This document shows positions 1,196 to 33,834 of a stretch of DNA of 41,634 nt, one piece after another (position 1 is the stretch's first letter; each line of letters starts with the position of its first letter). The notes under the pieces were generated by a model. The model ran no database searches. It was not told the DNA's origin and was given only the letters and a program-made list of their open reading frames with translations. The DNA lies in NCBI GenBank assembly GCA_947624115.1, contig CANQIS010000002.1:1-41634 (forward strand). Direction: 5' to 3'. The translations under genes and the position numbers were made by a program. This DNA comes from an uncultured Bacilli bacterium. Its GTDB lineage: Bacteria > Bacillota_I > Bacilli_A > RF39 > UBA660.

Positions 1196-2968
1196 TTATC
1201 TTCTATCAACAAACCATACAGTACTTAAATCACAACTACTACTATCTGGTGCAGGATTTGGCATTGTAAATTTCAACATAACAGGAATATGGAATGCTGT
1301 TCCAAATGCAACACCTGTTCCTGGCTGTAAACTTTTTATTTTAGATAGCCAACCTGATGACATATTAGGTATTAAATCCTTTATGTAATTTATATCTCTT
1401 GGATGAACCATTTTAAAAACAATAAAATTAGAACATTGTGAAATAACAGTTTCTGACAATTCCGATGGTCTTTGAGAAATTAAACCTAATAAAACACCAT
1501 ATTTTCTACCTTCCTTAGAAATTCTCTCAAAAATATTATAACCCAAAATATCTTTATCATGATCATCTTGAATATAACGATGCGCCTCTTCCAAGAAAAT
1601 GTGAAAAGGTAATGCATTTCTTCTACTTACATCTTTTGAATAATCAAATAACAATTTAGAATAAATTTTAACAATATTTTTAGCCAAACGATCCTCAACA
1701 TAATTAATACTAAAATTTATAATTTGCGCTTTTTTACCATTTTCAGCTGTCATTAAATTTCTAATATATTGAGTTTTTGTAACATATTCTGGATATTCAA
1801 AAAATACCCTTTCTTTACTATTTGCTAAAGAATGTAACCTAACCCTTAAAATGTTAGCGTCATCATAAACCTTATCACTTTTTAAACTACCCTCAGAAAT
1901 TAAAGCAAAATCAAAAGCATCTTTTAAATCATCTAAAGTATACATAAAAGTACCATCAGGTAAAACTAATTCATACTCATCAGTTAAAAAACTTTCGATA
2001 AATGAAATAATTAATTCCATATCACGAATTTTACCACTCGCATCTATTAATAAACACTGTCTTAATGGTCTTGTATAACCAGGTTGAAAAACTGGAGTTT
2101 CAAGATTTAATTCACTAGTATTATAACGTGACAAAATAGACAAAACTTGATCTCTTATTTGCGAAGAAGGTCTACCACTAGATAATATTTCTAATAACGC
2201 ACGAGCAATTACATCGTTTTTATGCTTAATTACTTCCTTTTCTTCCTTAGTAAATACAGTTACAAATTTTAATGTTTTTTCAATAATCGATAACTGACTA
2301 ATTTTTTCAGCACCTAATAATAAAGCATAATCATCTACACTTAATAACCATAAAGGTATTTTCAAAACATTAGTATCCTCAAAATACGTATTAGTAGTAT
2401 ATGTTTTCAAATTAATTTCTTGACTACTATCTGTTATTGCCTTAAAAGCATTATGATATTCGCCATATGCATCAAAAATAAAAATACTAGATTTATACGC
2501 AATTGAGTTTTGCTTATTAAATAAATTTTGAATTATTCTTGATAAACAGCTAGATTTACCACTACCAGTACTACCTAAAATTGCAAAATGATTACTAAAA
2601 AAATCATTTATTTTTACACCGACTTTTAAACCATCATAAAGTGCACTTTCAGCTAAATATATATGTTGACGATCAGAATAATTAGTAATTCCTACTACCA
2701 AATTCATTATATCTTTATTAACAAGTCTTACAGAAGACGAAAAAGAAGGATTTTTAATAATACCAGGTACAAATTTATCACCTTCAAATTCACCAAGTAA
2801 ATTTATATGCGCAATTTCATCCTTTACATTAGCTACTTCTCCTATTATTTTTCTTTCTTGATCTTGAACCAAAACATATAAATTAACTATATTTTGAAAT
2901 CTATTTAAATCAATACTTAACTTTAATAATAATTCATTATCATAATAACCAACTATATTACCTAACAT
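1196..2968 (-). CDS. HerA/FtsK-like (DUF87-type) P-loop ATPase, stand-alone
   Basis: This 590-aa ORF has a Walker A motif (GSTGSGKSS), a Walker B region (FHIFLEEAHRY) and an N-terminal barrel-like region before the ATPase core, as in HerA. SD AGGTAGGGG lies upstream. Confidence 0.8.
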   Translation of the reverse strand: MLGNIVGYYDNELLLKLSIDLNRFQNIVNLYVLVQDQERKIIGEVANVKDEIAHINLLGEFEGDKFVPGIIKNPSFSSSVRLVNKDIMNLVVGITNYSDRQHIYLAESALYDGLKVGVKINDFFSNHFAILGSTGSGKSSCLSRIIQNLFNKQNSIAYKSSIFIFDAYGEYHNAFKAITDSSQEINLKTYTTNTYFEDTNVLKIPLWLLSVDDYALLLGAEKISQLSIIEKTLKFVTVFTKEEKEVIKHKNDVIARALLEILSSGRPSSQIRDQVLSILSRYNTSELNLETPVFQPGYTRPLRQCLLIDASGKIRDMELIISFIESFLTDEYELVLPDGTFMYTLDDLKDAFDFALISEGSLKSDKVYDDANILRVRLHSLANSKERVFFEYPEYVTKTQYIRNLMTAENGKKAQIINFSINYVEDRLAKNIVKIYSKLLFDYSKDVSRRNALPFHIFLEEAHRYIQDDHDKDILGYNIFERISKEGRKYGVLLGLISQRPSELSETVISQCSNFIVFKMVHPRDINYIKDLIPNMSSGWLSKIKSLQPGTGVAFGTAFHIPVMLKFTMPNPAPDSSSCDLSTVWFVDRR

Positions 2969-4537: not shown

Positions 4538-4617
4538 GGTCCAGCCTCCTACCATAATAACATTTTATCACACATCAATATTATTATCAATTACTTTCAA
4601 AACAAATTAATAACAAA

Positions 4618-4645
4618 ATAAAAATAGAGAAATTTATATTTCCCT
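4618..4645 (-). terminator. Rho-independent terminator after pilin gene 1
   Basis: On the minus strand, GGGAAAT-ATAA-ATTTCTC forms a 7-bp stem with one G-U pair, followed by a T-rich tract (TATTTTTATTTT). Confidence 0.5.
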
Positions 4646-4662
4646 ACATATTACATATTTTA

Positions 4663-5523
4663 CTATTTTTTTCCATTTACATAATTTTCTAAAAGTGTTA
4701 CATCATCACTATCAATAAATCCATCACCATTAAAATCACTAGCATACATTCCATAATCATTACCATTACCATCAGTAAAATGTACAACTATAACACTTAA
4801 ATCATATCCTGCAAGACATCTTCGAATAAATGCTAAGTCTAAAATGTTTGTTACACCATCACCATTAATATCTGCATCTTTCTCATTTACACCTACGGAA
4901 TCTCCAGATAATAGTCCATTAAGCAATTCTAAATCTTTTTCATCAGTTACACCATCCTTATTTAAATCAGCAAAATCATTAGGACAATTTGCATTATTTG
5001 CAAGAAAATCTTTTAATTTTGATACATCACTATTATCAACTTTTCCATCACCATTAACATCACCTATTAAACGCGAATTACATTTACCCATAACTGAATT
5101 ATAATCTTCATTACTTGTATAATACTTATTACCATATTCTGCATCACAATATATAGACACATATTGACTATAATAATCATCATAATAAATTTTTATTGTC
5201 CCTTGCATATTCTTGTTCCCATTTAATGGATTTTTAACATCTTCATTTTTCAACAATCCACTCTGTTGTAATTCTGAAACACTTAATGTAATTGGTTCAT
5301 TAGCAAATGTTGCATTTGGTAATTCATTATCATTTGATGCTGCCCAGTTATCAGCTGCACTTAAAAGCCTATCAACTTGTTCAGCATACAATTTTTCTTT
5401 CGAATCATTTATTGAATTTAAAATAGATGGAATCGCAATTAAACCTAAAATAGCTAAAATAACAATCACAGCTAACAATTCAATTAAAGTAAATCCATTC
5501 GTCCTTTTATTATCTTTCATCAT
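4663..5523 (-). CDS. Type IV pilin-like (prepilin N-terminus) protein with two C-terminal dockerin-type modules
   Basis: The prepilin motif is KRTNG|FTLIELLAVIVILAILGLIAIP. The C-terminus has four DxNxDGxxxxxD calcium-loop repeats (DVNGDGKVDNSD, DLNKDGVTDEKD, DINGDGVTNILD, DFNGDGFIDSDD), arranged as two dockerin-like pairs. Confidence 0.8.
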   Translation of the reverse strand: MMKDNKRTNGFTLIELLAVIVILAILGLIAIPSILNSINDSKEKLYAEQVDRLLSAADNWAASNDNELPNATFANEPITLSVSELQQSGLLKNEDVKNPLNGNKNMQGTIKIYYDDYYSQYVSIYCDAEYGNKYYTSNEDYNSVMGKCNSRLIGDVNGDGKVDNSDVSKLKDFLANNANCPNDFADLNKDGVTDEKDLELLNGLLSGDSVGVNEKDADINGDGVTNILDLAFIRRCLAGYDLSVIVVHFTDGNGNDYGMYASDFNGDGFIDSDDVTLLENYVNGKK

Positions 5524-5557
5524 GATTTAAACATCTCCCTTTCATTATGATACCTAA

Positions 5558-5586
5558 ATTATAACACTAATAATTAATAATTGCAA
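5558..5586 (-). promoter_or_regulatory. Sigma-A-type promoter of pilin gene 1 (paralogous to 20234..20262)
   Basis: The minus strand reads TTGCAA (5586..5581), a 17-nt spacer, then TATAAT (5563..5558). The leader down to the ATG is nearly identical to that of pilin gene 2. Confidence 0.65.
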
Positions 5587-5653
5587 TACTATTAATACTA
5601 TTTTCAGTTTTGTTTACACAAAAAAAAGACAAAAAAGTTCTTAACTTAATTGT

Positions 5654-7207
5654 CTATTTAGCTTCTTCAACAGCTCTAACTTCTCTTATAACTGTTACTT
5701 TAATTGTACCAGGATATTGTAATTGAGATTCAATTTTACTTTTAATATCACGTGCTATTTTATAACTTTCTACATCATCAATTTCATCAGGCTTAACAAT
5801 TACACGTAACTCTCTTCCTGCTTGAACCGCAAATGATTTTTCAACACCATTAATATCACTAGCAATTGCTTCTAACTCTTCAAGACGCTTTACATAATTT
5901 TCTAATGAATCATTACGCGCCCCAGGTCTAGATGCAGACAATGTGTCAGCAATCGCCACAATTTCTGAAATAACATAATTTGATTTTTTATCACCATGAT
6001 GCGATTCAATCGCATTAATAACAACATCACTCTCTTTATATTTTTTAGCAAGTTCGGCACCAATCACCACATGACTACCTTCAATTTCATGATCAATAGC
6101 TTTACCAATATCATGCAATAAACCAGCTCTTTTAGCCATATTTTGATTTTCACCAATTTCAGCAGCAATAATTCCAGAAATTTGTGCAACTTCAATTGAA
6201 TGTTTTAATGCATTTTGACCATAACTAGTTCTAAAATGTAATTTACCAATCAACTCAATAAGCTCTGGTTCCATTTTCGTAATTCCTAGTTCAAATAATG
6301 CTGATTGACCATATTCTAAAACCCTTTCTCGCATTTCTTTAGCTGTTTTATCATACAATTCCTCAATTCTAGTTGGATGAATTCGTCCATCTTTAATTAA
6401 ATTTTCAATCGTCACACGAGCTATTTCACGGCGATATGGATCAAAACTTGATAAAACAATTGCTTCTGGAGTATCATCAATAATTAAATCAACGCCAGTT
6501 ACTGCCTCAATCGTTCTAATATTTCTTCCCTCTCGACCAATAATTCTACCTTTCATATCATCATTCGGTAAATTTACAACTGTCACCGTTTGATCATTAG
6601 CAACATCACCAGCATATTTTTGCATCGATGAAACTAATAAATTTTTTGCAATTTTATCAGCTTCCAATTTTGCTTCTGCCTCACGATCCTTAATATAAGC
6701 TGATATTTCTAACGACATCATTTCTTCAACTTTTTTCATAACTAAATCTTTAGCTTGTGTTTTTGAAAAACCAGCAATTTTCTCTAATAATTCAATTTGT
6801 TCTTTTTTAATTTCCTCCACTTTTTCTTGTTCTTTTTGGATATCTTTTTGTCTATTGATTAAACTATTTTCCTTATCTTCTAACATTTGTTCACGATTCT
6901 GTAGAGTCTGATCCCTTCTATCCATATTATTTTCTCTAGATAACAATCTTTCTTCAGTCTCTTTAATTTCATTTTTTTTCTCTTTAACAAATTGTTCTGT
7001 TTCTTTTTTTATCTTATATGATTCTTCTTTAGCTTCCAAAATTTGTTCTTTCTTAACCTTTTCAGCCTCTTTTTTTGCCTTATCAATAATCATTTCAGCA
7101 TTTTTAGTTGCTAAAGTACCCTTTATATAATTAAAAATCACAATTATAGTTACACCGACAATTATTCCAATAAGTACTAGTAAAATGGAGAAAGCCATAT
7201 CATTCAT
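5654..7207 (-). CDS. rny: Ribonuclease Y
   Basis: It has an N-terminal TM helix, a K/E-rich coiled coil, a KH domain ([12 protein letters not shown]) and an HD domain ([14 protein letters not shown]). SD GGAGG lies 6 nt upstream. Confidence 0.95.
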
Positions 7208-10843: not shown

Positions 10844-12319
10844 ATGGAAAAAATAGAAATTATAAAAAGCATTACCGAAAGAACTGGAGGAGATATATAT
10901 TTAGGTGTCGTTGGTGCAGTTAGGACAGGTAAATCAACTTTTATAAAAAAAGTTATTGAAAACTTAGTTGTTCCAAACATTGAAGATGAATACGAAAAAA
11001 AACGTGCCTTAGATGAAATACCACAAAGTGCACAAGGTAAAATGATTATGACAACCGAACCTAAATTTGTCCCTAGTAATGCTGCCAAAATATATATTGA
11101 TGATTTTTCAGCCAATATAAGATTAGTTGATTGTGTAGGTTACGTTATACCTAATTGTAAAGGTTATGAAGATGAAAATGGTCCAAGAATGGTTAAAACA
11201 CCATGGTATGATGAAGAAATACCATTTATCGAAGCTGCCGAAATTGGCACTGAAAAAGTTATAAAAGATCATTCGACAATTGGCATTGTCGTAACAACTG
11301 ATGGCTCAATTGGTGAATTAACTAGAAATGATTACATCGAAGCAGAACAACGAGTTATTACTGAACTAAAAGAAATTGGTAAACCTTTTATCGTTGTCAT
11401 GAATTCAGCCCATCCAATGCTGCCAGAAACTGAAAGATTAGCTGAAAAACTAAACCAAGAATATAGTGTACCTGTTCTACCAATTAGTGTTGAAAATATG
11501 ACCGAACGTGATATCTACTCCATTCTAAGAGAAGCATTATATGAATTTCCAGTTATGGAAGTTAAATTCAATATGCCCGAATGGATTGCCTGTCTAGCAC
11601 CTAATAATTGGTTAAAAAAAATATACATGGATAAAATTCGCGAAAGTGTTATCGAAATAGACAAATTAAGAGATATTGAAAATATTACCTCATATTTTAC
11701 TAATTGCGAATATATCAGCAAAGCATATTTATCAGAAGTTAATACCTCTACTGGCGAAGTCACCATCACCTTAGATGCTCCAAATGAACTATATAATCAA
11801 GTATTAAAAGACATAATTGGCATTAATATTGAAAGTAAAGCCGATTTACTTACTTTATTTCAAGATTACAACGAAGCAAAACAAGAATATGATCAAATTA
11901 AAGTTGCTTTAAAAATGGTAAAAACAACAGGTTATGGAGTAGCTTCACCTAGTTTATCAGATATGAAACTAGACACTCCAGAAATAATTCGTCAAGGCAG
12001 TCGTTACGGCATAAAATTAAAAGCAGTTGCACCATCAATACACATGATTAGAGTAGATGTTGAATCAACATTTGAACCAATAATTGGCTCTGAAATTCAA
12101 AGCAAAGAACTTATCGACTACCTAATGAAAGATAAAGACAGTAGTGCTGGAAATATTTGGAAAAGTGAAATATTTGGTAGAAGTTTAGACGTCATTGTCA
12201 AAGAAGGAATCCAAGCAAAATTATCCATGATGCCAGAAAATGCTAGATACAAATTACAACAAACCTTATCAAAATTAGTAAATAAAGGATCAGGTAATTT
12301 GTTTGCCATAGTAATATAA
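10844..12319 (+). CDS. spoIVA: Stage IV sporulation protein A (spore coat morphogenetic ATPase)
   Basis: The N-terminus IYLGVVGAVRTGKSTFIKK (Walker A) and the full-length 491-aa architecture are typical of SpoIVA. Confidence 0.95.
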   Translation: MEKIEIIKSITERTGGDIYLGVVGAVRTGKSTFIKKVIENLVVPNIEDEYEKKRALDEIPQSAQGKMIMTTEPKFVPSNAAKIYIDDFSANIRLVDCVGYVIPNCKGYEDENGPRMVKTPWYDEEIPFIEAAEIGTEKVIKDHSTIGIVVTTDGSIGELTRNDYIEAEQRVITELKEIGKPFIVVMNSAHPMLPETERLAEKLNQEYSVPVLPISVENMTERDIYSILREALYEFPVMEVKFNMPEWIACLAPNNWLKKIYMDKIRESVIEIDKLRDIENITSYFTNCEYISKAYLSEVNTSTGEVTITLDAPNELYNQVLKDIIGINIESKADLLTLFQDYNEAKQEYDQIKVALKMVKTTGYGVASPSLSDMKLDTPEIIRQGSRYGIKLKAVAPSIHMIRVDVESTFEPIIGSEIQSKELIDYLMKDKDSSAGNIWKSEIFGRSLDVIVKEGIQAKLSMMPENARYKLQQTLSKLVNKGSGNLFAIVI

Positions 12320-18963: not shown

Positions 18964-18993
18964 AATAAAAAAAATATGTCAAACATATTTTTT
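18964..18993 (-). terminator. Rho-independent terminator after pilin gene 2
   Basis: On the minus strand, AAAATATGT-TTG-ACATATTTT is followed by a T run, directly after the TAA stop. Confidence 0.6.
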
Positions 18994-20200
18994 AAAGACC
19001 TAAATTTGATTTATTTACGGTTATAACTGGACGAACACCATAATAGTTACTTCCGTTGACGTAGTTGTCGTCCAAGGAGCCGCAGTTGAACACACACCAC
19101 GCTAAAAAAGAGTAACTAGCATTCGTTGAAGAAGTCCAATATCCATAATTTCCACTTTGTTTCACATCACAACCATATTGGGTACAATCTTCTGTATTAT
19201 CAAACAACCATGCATATTTACTCTTTTTATTTGAACTTGCTACTTTGGTTTGCCATTTTTCTCCTGTACCATCTAAATAAAAATAGTCTTCATTTTGTAA
19301 TGTCCATCCTATTCCTCCATCATCTACCAGATTACTTGCTCCAGTTATCTCCGCTATTTCTTCGGCTTCAATTAATCTTGCTTTATTTCCATATGTTGAA
19401 TAATCTATTGTATATGAATGTGGTTGACCATCATATGTCCAACTTGCTGTATAAGGAATTGGTGATATTAATTCATCTGACCATGCTACTGTTTCATCTC
19501 TTAATGCTTCCAATACTTCTTTTGGACCTTTAAAATTCTCGCCACTTAAATTCCATGCTACTGTGCCTGTTATATTATGGTCTAATATTAAATTATAAAC
19601 AGCACTATCCTCCTTATCATTAAAGATATACCATTGCATACATCCTTCTGTTATACCAGTTTTACTTTGGTTTTTAGTATATTCATCTTCACTACATTGC
19701 TTACCATTAACTGGATTAAAATAAACTTTTGTTCCATTTTCCTTTATTTCTTTTTTTTCAATACAACTACTTTGTCCTTTTGAATATAAACATGTAAAAT
19801 TATTAATATTTAAATTTGTTGTTAATATATTTTTTCCACTATTACTTATTTTTATTGTTCCACTTGTTGGCTTTGTTCCTTTAAAATCTAATGTAGTTAA
19901 ATTATCCATATTATAACTATCATCTAATGTTTCTTTTAATTGACAACCATCGGTTGTACATTCAAAAGTGAGTGTTCCTTCTGGAAAGCCTCCATTATTT
20001 TGTAACATAAAACTTGTTACATAATTCTCAGCTGATTTGATAATACCACTTGTTGTATCCTCAGCAGCACTTTTTCTTGCCCTATTTAAAATATTTAATA
20101 TTTGTGGTACGGCAATCAAAGCAATAACAGCAAGTATTACTATTACTGCTAATAACTCTATTAATGTAAATCCTCTTTTTTTGTTATTAATTCTCATCAT
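18992..20200 (-). CDS. Type IV pilin-like protein with a large Cys-rich C-terminal domain
   Basis: The prepilin motif is KKRG|FTLIELLAVIVILAVIALIAVP. The roughly 360-aa C-terminal region ends with ARLIEAEEI...GYWTSS...YGVRPVI, reminiscent of DUF1566/Lcl-type lectin-like domains. That assignment is tentative. Confidence 0.8.
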   Translation of the reverse strand: MMRINNKKRGFTLIELLAVIVILAVIALIAVPQILNILNRARKSAAEDTTSGIIKSAENYVTSFMLQNNGGFPEGTLTFECTTDGCQLKETLDDSYNMDNLTTLDFKGTKPTSGTIKISNSGKNILTTNLNINNFTCLYSKGQSSCIEKKEIKENGTKVYFNPVNGKQCSEDEYTKNQSKTGITEGCMQWYIFNDKEDSAVYNLILDHNITGTVAWNLSGENFKGPKEVLEALRDETVAWSDELISPIPYTASWTYDGQPHSYTIDYSTYGNKARLIEAEEIAEITGASNLVDDGGIGWTLQNEDYFYLDGTGEKWQTKVASSNKKSKYAWLFDNTEDCTQYGCDVKQSGNYGYWTSSTNASYSFLAWCVFNCGSLDDNYVNGSNYYGVRPVITVNKSNLGL

Positions 20201-20233
20201 AATTTAAACATCTCCTTTTATTATGATATTTAA

Positions 20234-20262
20234 ATTATAACGTATTTATTTGATGATTGCAA
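20234..20262 (-). promoter_or_regulatory. Sigma-A-type promoter of pilin gene 2 (paralogous to 5558..5586)
   Basis: The minus strand reads TTGCAA (20262..20257), a 17-nt spacer, then TATAAT (20239..20234). Confidence 0.65.
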
Positions 20263-20388
20263 CACTTTTTTTTATATTAAAACTATAAAATATATCTGCT
20301 AGTTTTAATAACAAATTTAATTTATCATTAATACTATTTTATACTTCATATTTTTTTTTATTAATCATAAAATTAAATGGTGATAAGT

Positions 20389-21168
20389 ATGAATTTTCAA
20401 GTAGGAGATTTAGTAACACGAAACTCTTATAATAATGATATGGTATTTAAAATTACCGCCATTGAAAACACAATTTGTTATTTAAAAGGAATTAATGTAA
20501 GGTTAATAGCCGATAGTCCAGAATCTGATTTAGTTATATATGATAAAGAATTTACCGAAGATGAAGAATTTTTAGAACGTATAAAACCTAATTTAGACTT
20601 AGATAGAAGTGAATTCTTTTATTTACCAGGTAAAATTTTACACATTGATGGTGATAACGAATACTTAGAAAAATGTTTAAAATATTATGAAGATGACAAA
20701 CTAATGGCAATTGGAATAAGAGAAAATGAGGCTAATATAAAATTTAAAATTCGCGAATTATTAGAATTACATAACCCTAATATATTAGTTATAACAGGCC
20801 ATGATGCATATTACAAAAGAAAAGGAAGTCGAGATGATTTATCTGCTTACAAAAATAGTAAAAATTTTGTAGACGCTATAATAGAAGCTAGAAAATACGA
20901 ACATAGTCATGAAAAATTAATAATTATAGCTGGAGCTTGTCAATCAAATTATGAAGAATTAATAAAAGCTGGTGCCAATTTTGCTTCTAGCCCCAAAAGG
21001 ATTAATATTCACGCCCTAGACCCAGCAATTATCGCAACACGTATAAGCCTATCAGATATAAGTAAAGACATAGATTTAATAAACATCTTAGAAAATACAA
21101 AATATGGAAAAGATGGAATTGGTGGTATAAAAACTAAAGGTACTATGTATATTGGTTATCCTAGATAA
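20389..21168 (+). CDS. yabG: Sporulation-specific protease YabG
   Basis: The N-terminus MNFQVGDLVTRNSYNNDMVFKI resembles B. subtilis YabG. Conserved segments include LVITGHDAY, AGACQSNYEEL and INIHALDPA. SD GGTGAT lies upstream of the ATG at 20389. Confidence 0.85.
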   Translation: MNFQVGDLVTRNSYNNDMVFKITAIENTICYLKGINVRLIADSPESDLVIYDKEFTEDEEFLERIKPNLDLDRSEFFYLPGKILHIDGDNEYLEKCLKYYEDDKLMAIGIRENEANIKFKIRELLELHNPNILVITGHDAYYKRKGSRDDLSAYKNSKNFVDAIIEARKYEHSHEKLIIIAGACQSNYEELIKAGANFASSPKRINIHALDPAIIATRISLSDISKDIDLINILENTKYGKDGIGGIKTKGTMYIGYPR

Positions 21169-21913: not shown

Positions 21914-22987
21914 TTAATTAGAAGCTTTTATAAATTTTATACCTAAACTAGAAATACCAATTAATCCGATTAACCCAACCACCACATACAATTTTGAATT
22001 ATTTTCACCTGTCTTTGGATTTTCAATTGTTGTCATTTCTTCCGAAGTCAAAGTTGTTGTTGTTGATATAGTTGATGGTTTTGTAGTTGTAGTTATTGTC
22101 GACGTTGTCGATGACTTTGTAGTTGTTGCCGTTGTCGACGTTATTGATGGTTTTGTCGTTGTAGTTGTTGTCGACGTTGTTGATGGTTTTGTCGTTGTAG
22201 TTGTTGTCGACGTTGTTGACGGTTTTGTCGTTGTAGTTGTTGTCGACGTTGTTGATGGTTTTGTCGTTGTAGTTGTTGTCGTTGTAGTTGATGTTGTAGT
22301 TGATGTTGTAGTTGATGTTGTAGTTGATGTTGTCGTCGTTGATGTTGTTGATGATGTAGTAGAAGAAGTACTTGAAGAAGTCGTCGTTGGATCAGAACCT
22401 TGACAAGTAATTAATAAATAATATGTATCACCCGTTGGTAAAAGTTCACTCGTCGTTAAAACTGCATATTCACCACTTAAATAATTATCAGTTTTATTAC
22501 TTCCTTGTGATATAACATTTTGAGAAGTAATAACTGATTTTATAGAATCATAACTTTTAATCTCATAATTATCAGTAAACTTAGAGCCAATATCATAAGC
22601 CGTCATAGTTCCACTTGTTGGACTAACACTTAATAAATAAATATGTTCTTTTTTATTTAAGTTAAATATTTGAGGAATATTTATATACATAGTTAACTTA
22701 TCATTTTTCGCATCCCAAGTTTGACCACCTTTTACTGTAAATTTAAATGGTACAACATTAGCTCTTGAAGCACCACTTGCTTCAGTATAAAATTCTTTAG
22801 CTGCTGCTGTAACAATTGGATCAACATTGGTCACAATCGACATTGTAACTTTATCATTTCCACCCGTCATATAATATTCATAATAAGTATTATCATGACT
22901 TATATTCAATGCACTAACATGAACAAGCGCTAAAACACATGTTCCAATAAAAATAAATGAAAATAAAATACTTAATAGCTTTCTCAT
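21914..22987 (-). CDS. Cell-wall-anchored surface protein, NPKTG sorting signal (class B sortase substrate type), Thr-rich stalk
   Basis: It has a signal peptide (MRKLLSILFSFIFIGTCVLALVHVSA) and a roughly 190-aa unassigned domain paralogous to 23127..23918. A long S/T-rich repeat stalk follows, then ENPKTG, a hydrophobic helix and a KFIKASN tail. Confidence 0.8.
   Translation of the reverse strand: MRKLLSILFSFIFIGTCVLALVHVSALNISHDNTYYEYYMTGGNDKVTMSIVTNVDPIVTAAAKEFYTEASGASRANVVPFKFTVKGGQTWDAKNDKLTMYINIPQIFNLNKKEHIYLLSVSPTSGTMTAYDIGSKFTDNYEIKSYDSIKSVITSQNVISQGSNKTDNYLSGEYAVLTTSELLPTGDTYYLLITCQGSDPTTTSSSTSSTTSSTTSTTTTSTTTSTTTSTTTSTTTTTTTTTKPSTTSTTTTTTKPSTTSTTTTTTKPSTTSTTTTTTKPSITSTTATTTKSSTTSTITTTTKPSTISTTTTLTSEEMTTIENPKTGENNSKLYVVVGLIGLIGISSLGIKFIKASN
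22059..22340. repeat. In-frame tandem repeats encoding the Thr-rich stalk
   Basis: There are six 36-bp units (22059..22274). Four are near-identical: GTTGTCGACGTTGTTGATGGTTTTGTCGTTGTAGTT, the reverse complement of TTTTTKPSTTST-type coding. They are followed by at least 4 copies of the 12-bp unit GTTGTAGTTGAT (22281..22328). Confidence 0.85.
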
Positions 22988-23126: not shown

Positions 23127-23918
23127 TTATTTATTTGCTTTGGCAAATTTAATCCCCAAACCAGCTATTCCAATTACACCTATTACACCAATAATAAAGT
23201 ATAATTGATTACTATTCTCACCTGTTTTTGGATTTTCAACAGTCGTTGTTTGACTTGGTTTTGTTGTAGTAGTTGTAGTTGCAGTAGTTGTTATAGTTGT
23301 AGATGATGTTGTTAATTCAATTCCTTGGCAAGTAATTAACACATAATATGTATCACCAGTACTTTCAAAATCACCTGTTTCTAAAACAGCATATTGATTA
23401 CTAAAATAATCATCCTTTAAATTTGAACCTTTTGATACAACTGAATCTCCTTCAATTTCAGCCTTTACTGAATTATAATCCTTAATTTCATATTTTCTAG
23501 GTGTTTTCTGTTGTAATTTGTCACCAATTTCATAAACATCATAATCTCCACCTGATTTAATTCTCATTAAATATATATGATCTTTTTTATCCAAATTAAA
23601 AGTCTTTGGAATATTTATAAACATTTTAGCCTTATCAGATTCTTTATTCCAAGTATTTTCTGCTTTTACAGAAAATTTAAATGTAATCGCATTAACAATT
23701 TCTGCTCCACTTTCTGGTCTATAAAACTGAACAAGTGCTTTATTTATGTCATCATTATTTTCATCCATAATTGACATTGTTAATTTATCACTACCACCAG
23801 TCATATAGAAATCATAATAAACATCCTTATTAATTGTCAAAGCATTAGCTGAACCTAAACCAAACACACTAGCTGTAATAATTGCAAATGTAAATAATAA
23901 ACTAGCAAATTTCTTCAT
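23127..23918 (-). CDS. Cell-wall-anchored surface protein, NPKTG sorting signal, paralog of 21914..22987 with a short stalk
   Basis: I placed the start at 23918 (MKKFASLLFTF.., SD AGGAGAGG). It has the same conserved domain (YYDFYMTGGSDKLTMSI...GDTYYVLITCQG) and a short T-rich linker. ENPKTG, a TM helix and a KFAKANK tail follow. Confidence 0.8.
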   Translation of the reverse strand: MKKFASLLFTFAIITASVFGLGSANALTINKDVYYDFYMTGGSDKLTMSIMDENNDDINKALVQFYRPESGAEIVNAITFKFSVKAENTWNKESDKAKMFINIPKTFNLDKKDHIYLMRIKSGGDYDVYEIGDKLQQKTPRKYEIKDYNSVKAEIEGDSVVSKGSNLKDDYFSNQYAVLETGDFESTGDTYYVLITCQGIELTTSSTTITTTATTTTTTKPSQTTTVENPKTGENSNQLYFIIGVIGVIGIAGLGIKFAKANK

Positions 23919-23943
23919 TTTAACCTCTCCTATCTTTACACAA

Positions 23944-23972
23944 ATTATAGCAACTATTTTTATTATGGTCAA
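23944..23972 (-). promoter_or_regulatory. Sigma-A-type promoter candidate for surface protein gene 2
   Basis: The minus strand reads TTGACC (23972..23967), a 17-nt spacer, then TATAAT (23949..23944). Confidence 0.5.
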
Positions 23973-24097: not shown

Positions 24098-24931
24098 ATG
24101 AGAAAGCAAAACAAAAAATTTTGGATTTCATATATTTTATTTACAATTATTTTGTGCATTTCTTTATATAAAATAACAACAAAACAGATTAATTACAAAT
24201 TAATCGAACAACAAGAACTCGATATTAGAAAATTGGTTTCAATTGTTGAAGTAGCACCAAAAGAAGAAAATACTGAAATTGTAAATCCACCAGAGCCAGA
24301 AGAACCTACAGAGGACAATAATTATGTACCAAATGACTATTGGGACTATATAAATGTTCCACTTATAAGTGTTGATTTTAACAATTTATTAGCTAAAAAT
24401 AATGACACTGTAGCTTGGATACAACTAAACAATACAAATATTAATTATCCTGTAGTTCAAACAACAGATAATGATTATTACCTACATTACGCATATGACA
24501 AAACATATAATGAAGCTGGTTGGGTTTTTATGGATTATCGAAATAACCCCAACAATTTTGATCAAAATACTATTATTTATGGACATGGTATGAATAATAA
24601 TACTATGTTTGGATCATTAAGATATATAGTTGAAAATTGGTGGTATACTAATCAAGAAAATCATACTGTAAAATTATCAACACCAACAGAAAATACTTTA
24701 TGGCAAGTATTTAGTATTTATACCATTCCAGAAGAATCATACTACTTACAAACCAAATTTAATGGTGATGAACAATATATGGATTTCTTAAATACATTAA
24801 AATCAAGAAGTATATATAATTTTAATGCAGAACTAAATCCACAAGATAAAATAATTACTCTATCATCTTGTTACAACAACGAACTAAGAGTTGTACTACA
24901 CGCTAAACTAATAAAAAGAGAAACACGATGA
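24098..24931 (+). CDS. srtB: Class B sortase
   Basis: It has an N-terminal membrane anchor and the segments NNDTVAWIQL..NINYPVVQTTDNDYYLHY, IIYGHGM (catalytic His region) and ITLSSCY (TLxxC catalytic Cys), plus a downstream Arg (LRVV). It is divergent from two NPKTG substrates. Confidence 0.85.
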   Translation: MRKQNKKFWISYILFTIILCISLYKITTKQINYKLIEQQELDIRKLVSIVEVAPKEENTEIVNPPEPEEPTEDNNYVPNDYWDYINVPLISVDFNNLLAKNNDTVAWIQLNNTNINYPVVQTTDNDYYLHYAYDKTYNEAGWVFMDYRNNPNNFDQNTIIYGHGMNNNTMFGSLRYIVENWWYTNQENHTVKLSTPTENTLWQVFSIYTIPEESYYLQTKFNGDEQYMDFLNTLKSRSIYNFNAELNPQDKIITLSSCYNNELRVVLHAKLIKRETR

Positions 24932-33060: not shown

Positions 33061-33834
33061 TTAAATATTTGGTATCGTCAAAGGAATAGAACTGTTATTT
33101 AATCCACCTATTAAATATTCAGGTACTAAACCTTGAACCATCTTTATCGCAACTGGTATATCAGTTTCAACCACAATTGTATCACTAATGAGTGGTAAAA
33201 TTACCTTGGACTCCATCCTCACACTAACACTTACCTCAATTAAAGCATTATTTATACCATAATTAGTAACTTTGGTATTAAAATTACTAACAATATCACC
33301 TATCAAACTAAATTTAACAGGAATTTTTGGTCCTAAATTAGCAAGTAAAGAATTCTGAAATACTACACCACTTGGAATTTCATAAATAATACCTTTCGAT
33401 AACTTTTCTTCATCATAATCAATTAAAACATTATCAGGTAATTCCAATAAATCTAATTTGCCTTCTTCTAAATACTTAATATTAAGTTGAATAGTATTAA
33501 CAATTTTCGTCAAAGTTTTATTTACCATCACTGGATCAAAATCAATTGTTCTTATTTCATTATTACTATCACGTGTTATTATAAACATCTCTAAAACATC
33601 TAAATCCTCAGTAACTTGTTTTGAAATTGCTCTATTTATAATTAAAGTTGAAAACTTTTTTACTTGACTAGACGCATAATTTACTAAAATTGGTACCACA
33701 TTATTATTAAGATAATTCAAACTAAATCTCACTGCAAATATAATTAAAACTAAAACTATAATAACAATATTAGAAATACCCAATTTAAATCGACATTTTT
33801 TTTTCAAATGAATTCTTCTTCTCATAACAATCAC
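33061..33834 (-). CDS. yunB: Sporulation protein YunB
   Basis: It has an N-terminal TM helix and a conserved YunB-like core (VVPILVNYASSQVKKFSTLIINRAISKQV...). The 257-aa length fits. The start is either GTG at 33834 or ATG at 33825. Confidence 0.7.
   Translation of the reverse strand: MIVMRRRIHLKKKCRFKLGISNIVIIVLVLIIFAVRFSLNYLNNNVVPILVNYASSQVKKFSTLIINRAISKQVTEDLDVLEMFIITRDSNNEIRTIDFDPVMVNKTLTKIVNTIQLNIKYLEEGKLDLLELPDNVLIDYDEEKLSKGIIYEIPSGVVFQNSLLANLGPKIPVKFSLIGDIVSNFNTKVTNYGINNALIEVSVSVRMESKVILPLISDTIVVETDIPVAIKMVQGLVPEYLIGGLNNSSIPLTIPNI

Follow-up and report, generated by a model that had tools for sequence, protein, structure and literature searches.

A prepilin-type protein with two tandem dockerin modules in an uncultured gut Bacilli lineage

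We analyzed a 41,634-nt stretch of DNA (the window) from an uncultured Bacilli bacterium of the GTDB lineage RF39/UBA660 (GenBank assembly GCA_947624115.1, contig CANQIS010000002.1, positions 1–41,634). Our subject is an open reading frame (ORF) of 286 aa on the minus strand (4663–5523), located between rny and yqeG, whose translation and profile matches reveal a prepilin leader, a pilin module, and two dockerin modules. A preliminary description of the window had read this ORF as the fusion of a type IV pilin-like protein with a tandem pair of dockerin-type modules, and had supposed it to be transcribed alone from its own promoter. Three additional contigs, each from a different sample, encode an identical protein in the same gene neighborhood, and the ORF is therefore not an assembly artifact.

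The N terminus of the protein is that of a prepilin. The class III leader peptide MMKDNKRTNG (5494–5523, minus strand) is short and basic and ends in Gly-1. The cleavage site is followed by FTLIE, with Phe at +1 and Glu at +5, and the chain runs on through ∼22 hydrophobic residues, the α1-N segment FTLIELLAVIVILAILGLIAIP (5428–5493, minus strand). In profile searches of the ORF, the N_methyl model of Pfam scored 31.9 bits (cutoff 21.2) and the NCBIfam model TIGR02532 scored 27.9 bits (cutoff 16.3), bearing out the prepilin leader and hydrophobic helix of the preliminary description. What had been called a pilin-like part turned out to be a complete small pilin module (residues 11–150; 5074–5493, minus strand), as judged by an AlphaFold2 (AF2) model and an alignment to stand-alone pilins. 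The model was built from 25 family members and had a mean predicted local distance difference test score (pLDDT) of 71.8; overall, it consists of a 50-residue α1 helix, a β-sheet, and four dockerin helices. Within the pilin part, where block pLDDT was mostly 70–90, the α1 helix spans residues 13–63 and strands 78–81, 109–115, and 120–126 form a small β-sheet. Cys126 and Cys148 are kept in the closest homologs, both stand-alone and dockerin-bearing. A phmmer search of the PDB with the ORF also matched the pilins PilE1 and MshA; the structural match of the model to PAK pilin and PilE1 in Foldseek was weak, with a template modeling (TM) score of 0.33–0.40.

The pilin module ends at Cys148 and the first dockerin starts from about residue 152; a linker of ∼6 residues joins the two. 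The remainder of the protein holds four 12-residue Ca2+ loops: DVNGDGKVDNSD (155–166), DLNKDGVTDEKD (186–197), DINGDGVTNILD (218–229), and DFNGDGFIDSDD (263–274). Each has Asp or Asn at loop positions 1, 3, 5, 9, and 12 (20 out of 20 Ca2+-ligand positions canonical), and each is followed by a helix. The first two loops, with helices 164–175 and 195–205, make up dockerin module 1 (residues 152–207; 4903–5070, minus strand), which was delineated by profile, PDB search, AF2 model, and Foldseek. The last two, with helices 227–237 and 272–282, make up dockerin module 2 (residues 216–284; 4672–4878, minus strand), delineated by profile, PDB search, and AF2 model. The usual recognition positions, 10/11 and 17/18, hold NS/KD, EK/NG, IL/RR, and SD/EN; the residues there differ in all four repeats.

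Several lines of evidence identify these modules as dockerins. The Pfam Dockerin_1 model (PF00404) matched the ORF with 70.5 bits (cutoff 22.9) in two stretches, the best of which covered residues 218–283. In the same Pfam search, no EF-hand or FG-GAP model rose above its own cutoff; with those models below threshold and Dockerin_1 far above it, EF-hand, FG-GAP, or thrombospondin-type loops were ruled out. Searching the PDB with phmmer, we recovered the CelS dockerin 1DAQ/2MTE (E-value of 4.7e-6 for 1daq) and the double dockerin 8x39_A of Clostridium thermocellum, which aligned over residues 152–285 (E-value of 4.6e-4). Dockerins also ranked at the top of a Foldseek search of the PDB with the model: 6kge_B matched with a TM score of 0.82 and a root-mean-square deviation of 1.2 Å over 55 columns, and further matches included 3ul4_B and 2vn5_D (probability 0.89–1.00, superposition 1.2–1.8 Å). 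The Foldseek E-values were weak because the dockerin domain is small, and the structural match covers at least one of the two modules. Wherever an ORF in 3.1 Mb of related DNA had two or more dockerin loops, it was a prepilin. Likewise, among 6455 ORFs (≥80 aa) from 4 Mb, prepilin-type ORFs alone had two or more such loops, and their presence here is not due to chance. The arrangement of the four loops as two dockerin pairs thus agrees with the preliminary description, as does their nature as genuine dockerins and not generic EF-hands, with at least one of them superposing on a canonical dockerin fold.

The gene appears equipped for expression on its own. A promoter-like site (5558–5586, minus strand) consists of TTGCAA and TATAAT separated by 17 nt, with an upstream TG and 10 out of 12 consensus matches (predicted start of transcription at ∼5550), and is followed by a conserved 5′ untranslated region (UTR) with a ribosome-binding site (TATCATAATGAAAGGGAGATGTTTAAATC; 5524–5557, minus strand). 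On the upstream side, a hairpin with a U8 run (5619–5655, minus strand; −12.2 kcal/mol) directly follows the rny stop codon; it is probably the rny terminator and may insulate the pilin gene. On the downstream side, an AT-rich hairpin of 10 bp, followed by UUUUUAUUUU, lies 16 nt past the stop codon (4614–4647, minus strand; −11.6 kcal/mol, z-score −2.0) and resembles a terminator. A scan for G+C-rich terminators found none, including at the 4614–4647 hairpin. Given the flanking hairpins with U-runs and the 10 out of 12 promoter match, monocistronic expression of 4663–5523 is plausible. The claim of an own promoter and terminator is therefore probably correct, with the promoter-like site and the hairpins speaking for it and the terminator scan against.

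A comparison with relatives suggested how the gene came to its position. In the nearest related loci (L256 and L257), rny is followed directly by yqeG, yqeH, and herA-like genes, and a comparison of window positions 4556–5653 with L256:1643–1737 and L257:7555–7707 showed that the pilin-dockerin gene is present only in the window. Out of 80 rny loci, a pilin gene directly follows rny in one (L292), and another (L276) has one ∼690 bp downstream. Because the gene is absent between rny and yqeG in the nearest relatives, and rare among the 80 loci, it is a recent, lineage-specific insertion that arrived with its own promoter. The hexanucleotide AAATAG is found at both junctions of the insert, whose downstream side retains the old intergenic hairpin together with the promoter of yqeG. 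By the same comparison, the insert seems to have brought a new hairpin terminator for rny.

The window holds a second modular prepilin gene, absent from the preliminary description (18992–20200, minus strand; 402 aa; N_methyl score of 35.7 bits), with a different C-terminal domain, a large one for which Pfam returned only a weak, subthreshold match to Lcl_C. Upstream of the two genes, ∼75 nt comprising promoter, UTR, ribosome-binding site, and start are almost identical (5524–5600 and 20201–20280, minus strand): Both promoter hexamers are the same, the UTRs are near-identical, and the coding sequence of the leader and α1-N is likewise almost identical. A comparable case was seen in a related locus (L089) in which six pilin genes within 12 kb have ∼110 nt in common upstream (5′ of 1755, 5681, 6705, 10001, 10983, and 11920). 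Such cassettes shared within a genome suggest that the genes are co-regulated and that a self-contained pilin cassette has been duplicated or has undergone gene conversion.

We surveyed relatives for the same fusion. Among 270 retrieved proteins, a prepilin motif and dockerin loops occurred together in at least 51 distinct proteins of uncultured gut Bacilli, with one to four or more dockerin copies per pilin. The first ∼150 residues of the window protein are 40%–56% identical to many stand-alone pilins of 120–170 aa, whose chains stop directly past the second, conserved Cys. Members of the closest subgroup differ in dockerin number on the same scaffold: none in P0127, P0134, and P0004; one in P0128 and P0003; two in the window protein; and three in P0002. 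Numbers of four or more were seen in more distant members. At one orthologous locus (DUF3792-DUF421-[pilin]-Polysacc_synt-SecDF-RelA), a bare 156-aa pilin in one organism is replaced by a three-dockerin pilin in another. Other family members carry LRR_5, DUF285, Laminin_G_3, or DUF6273 in place of dockerins. Glu+5 and the α1 helix are invariant across the aligned family, and the genes stand singly among housekeeping genes. When GTDB species genomes were searched with peptide patterns taken from the window protein alone, no close whole-protein relatives were found; an alignment-based scan yielded mainly pilin-only matches and two pilin-dockerins (L178 and L202). Taken at the level of sequence, 4663–5523 belongs to a dispersed family of predicted modular pilins in which a common promoter, leader, and α1 cassette is combined with varying effector domains.

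In the course of this survey, we also noted polydockerin proteins (P0129–P0153, P0130/P0131) from metagenome-assembled genomes (MAGs) of Omnitrophota and Parcubacteria. These have 5–15 tandem Dockerin_1 repeats, in some cases with an S8 protease or PG_binding_1 domain.

The host is a low-GC member of the Bacilli (26% G+C in the window). The window leucyl-tRNA synthetase (LeuRS) is at most 77% identical, and its RNase Y at most 90% identical, to those of GTDB genomes, and the genomes with these matches are all MAGs of uncultured gut "Bacilli," "Tenericutes," or "Erysipelotrichaceae." Genes at 10844–12319, 20377–21168, and 33061–33834 encode a SpoIVA-like protein, a YabG-like protein (both called from their translations), and YunB (from the Pfam model Spore_YunB). 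These sporulation genes mark the lineage, which probably has a small genome, as a spore former.

Consistent with the preliminary description, no gene for a pilus ATPase, platform protein, or prepilin peptidase was found among the scanned proteins of the 41.6-kb window. We therefore turn to related MAGs, in which a conserved core locus contains two small pilins in divergent orientation to a GspE/PilB-type ATPase, with an A24 prepilin peptidase and a GspF/PilC-type platform protein encoded alongside. The T2SSE ATPase, A24 peptidase, T2SSF platform, and two pilins were found together in 49 of the 80 related loci (L096–L175). One MAG with a LeuRS 76% identical to that of the window (CAMSXY01) has the ATPase and pilins, and another with an RNase Y 76% identical (CAKPHO01) has the full core locus along with a two-dockerin pilin. 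The preliminary description had staked its reading on the genome encoding a cohesin and an assembly machinery; the machinery half is answered by the core locus of these MAGs, which makes its absence unlikely. PilT, PilM, PilN, and PilO homologs were not found near the core locus, which has a single ATPase. The NCBIfam bindosome ATPase model matched the ATPase of the lineage weakly (31.8 bits). An assignment to Com pili was not favored, as the GspE/PilB and GspF/PilC models outscored ComGA/ComGB; none of these models reached its equivalog cutoff.

Two further points concern these loci. The core locus, a minimal type 4 filament locus (e.g., L097:8887–14362), encodes an ATPase without its N-terminal domain and a PilC-like platform protein with a 220-aa N-terminal extension. 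In one relative (L093:1589–9257), very large proteins of 1497, 437, and 606 aa with Laminin_G_3 and ALK_LTK_GRD (glycine-rich) domains stand beside the pilus ATPase and are followed by two pilins; these large proteins may be pilus-associated adhesins.

The preliminary description was aware of no report of pilin-dockerin fusions as a system. Literature searches that paired dockerin with pilin, or either dockerin or cohesin with names of the lineage, returned no description of the fusion. InterPro entry IPR002105 is the dockerin type I repeat. Modular pilins are nonetheless an established class, comprising 1,219 proteins in 264 architectures (Raynaud et al. 2021, PNAS, PMC8179133), and the PilB (vWA) and PilC (lectin) proteins of Streptococcus sanguinis are modular pilins that were shown on pili and act as adhesins (PMC8179133). 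Dataset S1 of that paper lists, without comment, the architectures IPR012902-IPR002105-IPR002105 (two proteins) and IPR012902-IPR002105 (one protein), and its text makes no mention of dockerins. The combination of an N-methyl and a dockerin domain has thus already been catalogued in three proteins (Dataset S1 of PMC8179133), and what stands of the claim to novelty is that we found no paper discussing it.

Like the modular pilins described by Raynaud et al. (2021), the window protein comes from a monoderm host, and its class III signal peptide leads into a small pilin module onto which a protein-binding effector is grafted through a short linker. Unlike them, its effector is a double dockerin, and its gene lies outside the pil locus in a dispersed multigene family with a common promoter/leader cassette. 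The modules themselves resemble cellulosomal type I dockerins (CelS/Cel48S, 1DAQ/2MTE; Clostridium acetobutylicum Doc0917, 6KGE) in their duplicated 22-residue segments of a Ca2+ loop and a helix; they differ in sitting on a pilin and not on an enzyme or scaffoldin, in having no cohesin or dockerin-bearing carbohydrate-active enzyme (CAZyme) detected nearby, and in belonging to a small-genome gut Bacilli lineage that is not a known cellulosome producer. Tandem dockerins, from double to septuple, are known. In dDoc_0689, part of an S8 protease from C. thermocellum (8X39/8X3A; Chen et al. 2024, as cited in PMC12484212), the first dockerin binds ScaD, a scaffoldin attached to the cell. The window protein shares with dDoc_0689 two tandem dockerins, 8x39_A being alignable to its residues 152–285; unlike dDoc_0689, which belongs to a species with a cellulosome, it has a pilin as carrier and a 24-residue insertion in its second dockerin. 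In the archaeal bindosome, class III signal peptides occur on sugar-binding proteins, and a pilin-type signal puts diverse extracellular domains on the cell surface. The use of such a signal to display many functionally diverse domains is common to both systems; the window protein differs in keeping a full pilin globular module, and its system is bacterial.

On balance, and with some reserve, we think it probable that the protein is a type IV pilin of the modular class, probably a minor one, whose double dockerin is displayed for Ca2+-dependent protein binding. The prepilin would be inserted into the membrane and cut after Gly10 by an A24 prepilin peptidase. A PilB/GspE-type ATPase and a PilC/GspF-type platform protein, encoded elsewhere in the genome, would then polymerize it via its α1 helix into a type 4 filament, in which the pilin-dockerin subunit would probably be of low abundance or located at the tip. 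Beyond the cell wall, the double dockerin on such a filament would bind proteins in a Ca2+-dependent manner, for adhesion or tethering; the ligand would most likely be a cohesin-type domain, carried by a second protein or by a different cell.

A search for that ligand, along with several features of the gene itself, weighs against this proposal. No Cohesin match was found in a Pfam scan of the window proteins or among the Pfam-annotated neighbors of homologs in five relatives. The type I cohesin of CipA, a query that was checked against 1AOH before the search, found no match by phmmer among 6455 ORFs (≥80 aa) from 4.04 Mb of related DNA (best E-value of 0.21). Dockerins were not seen on CAZymes either: The window proteins with GH31 and DUF4015 domains have none. 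We also considered as ScaE-like wall cohesins two sortase-substrate paralogs (21914–22987 and 23127–23972, minus strand; 47% identical), each combining a β-sandwich domain with a Thr/Ser-rich stalk and, as sorting signal, an ENPKTG/A motif, and with a sortase gene next to both (24098–24931, plus strand). They are the only secreted β-sandwich proteins of obscure family near the ORF, and their own family is very narrow (six homologs among 5.8 billion proteins). They had no Pfam domain and no PDB sequence match with either single-sequence or profile searches; their AF2 model was a β-sandwich (pLDDT of 65) for which Foldseek returned only nonspecific matches (TM score ≤0.35) and no cohesin, so that their reading as wall cohesins was dropped as unsupported. 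Dockerins are reportedly common in genomes that lack cohesins (Peer et al. 2009). Further points on this side are that the closest non-pilin dockerin arrays belong to Omnitrophota and Parcubacteria, groups not known to make cellulosomes; that module 2 has an atypical insertion between its repeats (residues 238–261, pLDDT <50); and that 4663–5523 is far from any pilus locus. No cohesin was detected, then, in searches that were skewed to pilin, leuS, and pilB neighborhoods and had low sensitivity for divergent cohesins; a partner may still exist. The cohesin-binding rail or tether proposed in the preliminary description is accordingly a hypothesis.

The same observations lend themselves to another account, in which the protein is still a pilin and the dockerin repeats act independently of cohesins, as Ca2+-stabilized modules that bind glycans, host or food particles, or other dockerins, or that stiffen or space the subunit. 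It would fit the failure of every search made to detect a cohesin, the lack of dockerin-bearing enzymes in the 3.1 Mb of related DNA, where all ORFs with two or more loops are pilins, a copy number that varies as freely as in a repeat array, the likeness to noncellulosomal polydockerin surface proteins with 6–15 copies, and recognition positions that differ in all four repeats. Yet the modules match true cohesin-binding dockerins in both sequence and fold, the double dockerin dDoc_0689 binds cohesins (PMC12484212), and the cohesin search was of low sensitivity and covered less than a whole genome; we consider a cohesin-independent role rather unlikely, though of appreciable weight. The location of the genes raises a different doubt, namely, that the prepilin N terminus serves only as an export and anchor signal, like the class III signal peptides on bindosome sugar-binding proteins of archaea, and that the protein resides in the membrane or in a short pseudopilus, or is released, and is no subunit of a long pilus. 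The genes are numerous and scattered far from the pilus locus (six in 12 kb of L089, at least nine loci in MAG MGYG-HGUT-02248); about one-third of prepilin ORFs in related loci exceed 250 aa, more than expected for the minor pilins of one filament; and the core locus has one ATPase and no PilT, PilM, PilN, or PilO homolog nearby. We find this unlikely, as the protein begins with an entire pilin fold that has a conserved Cys pair and is homologous to stand-alone pilins, and Glu+5 and the α1 helix, the polymerization interface, are invariant across the family. That the ORF is a decaying or chimeric, functionless remnant of the recent insertion is highly improbable: The gene's absence from this position in the nearest relatives and the odd insertion in dockerin 2 could be read that way, but the frame is unbroken, each of the 20 Ca2+-ligand positions is canonical, a consensus-like promoter and a ribosome-binding site are present, the sequence is identical in four samples, and a large conserved family exists.

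The reading as a modular pilin with a protein-binding double dockerin can be carried further, to a cohesin-docking filament. Pili tipped or studded with one to five dockerins would plug into cohesin-bearing scaffoldins or wall proteins, possibly on other species (producers of cellulosomes or amylosomes, for example), and would then serve interspecies attachment or piracy; the genes would travel as self-contained promoter-leader-pilin cassettes and exchange their effector modules. We offer this version as a speculation with a low probability of being correct.

The cohesin-dockerin interaction is among the strongest known protein-protein bonds. If the dockerins of these pilins do bind cohesins, its role in enzyme scaffolding would be joined by one in attachment through pili, and an abundant, uncultured gut Bacilli lineage with a reduced genome would have a testable adhesion mechanism. 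Even without a cohesin, the family offers a clear natural case of pilins that gain and lose effector modules, with zero, one, two, three, or more dockerins on one scaffold. We regard the domain architecture as a solid finding of a type already catalogued, and its function as a prediction from sequence and modeled structure.

Finally, we noted in the vicinity of the insertion a gene for a HerA/DUF87-type ATPase (1196–2968, minus strand; 590 aa). It lies downstream of yqeH in the window as well as in L256 and L257, and is an unusual member of a housekeeping cluster.

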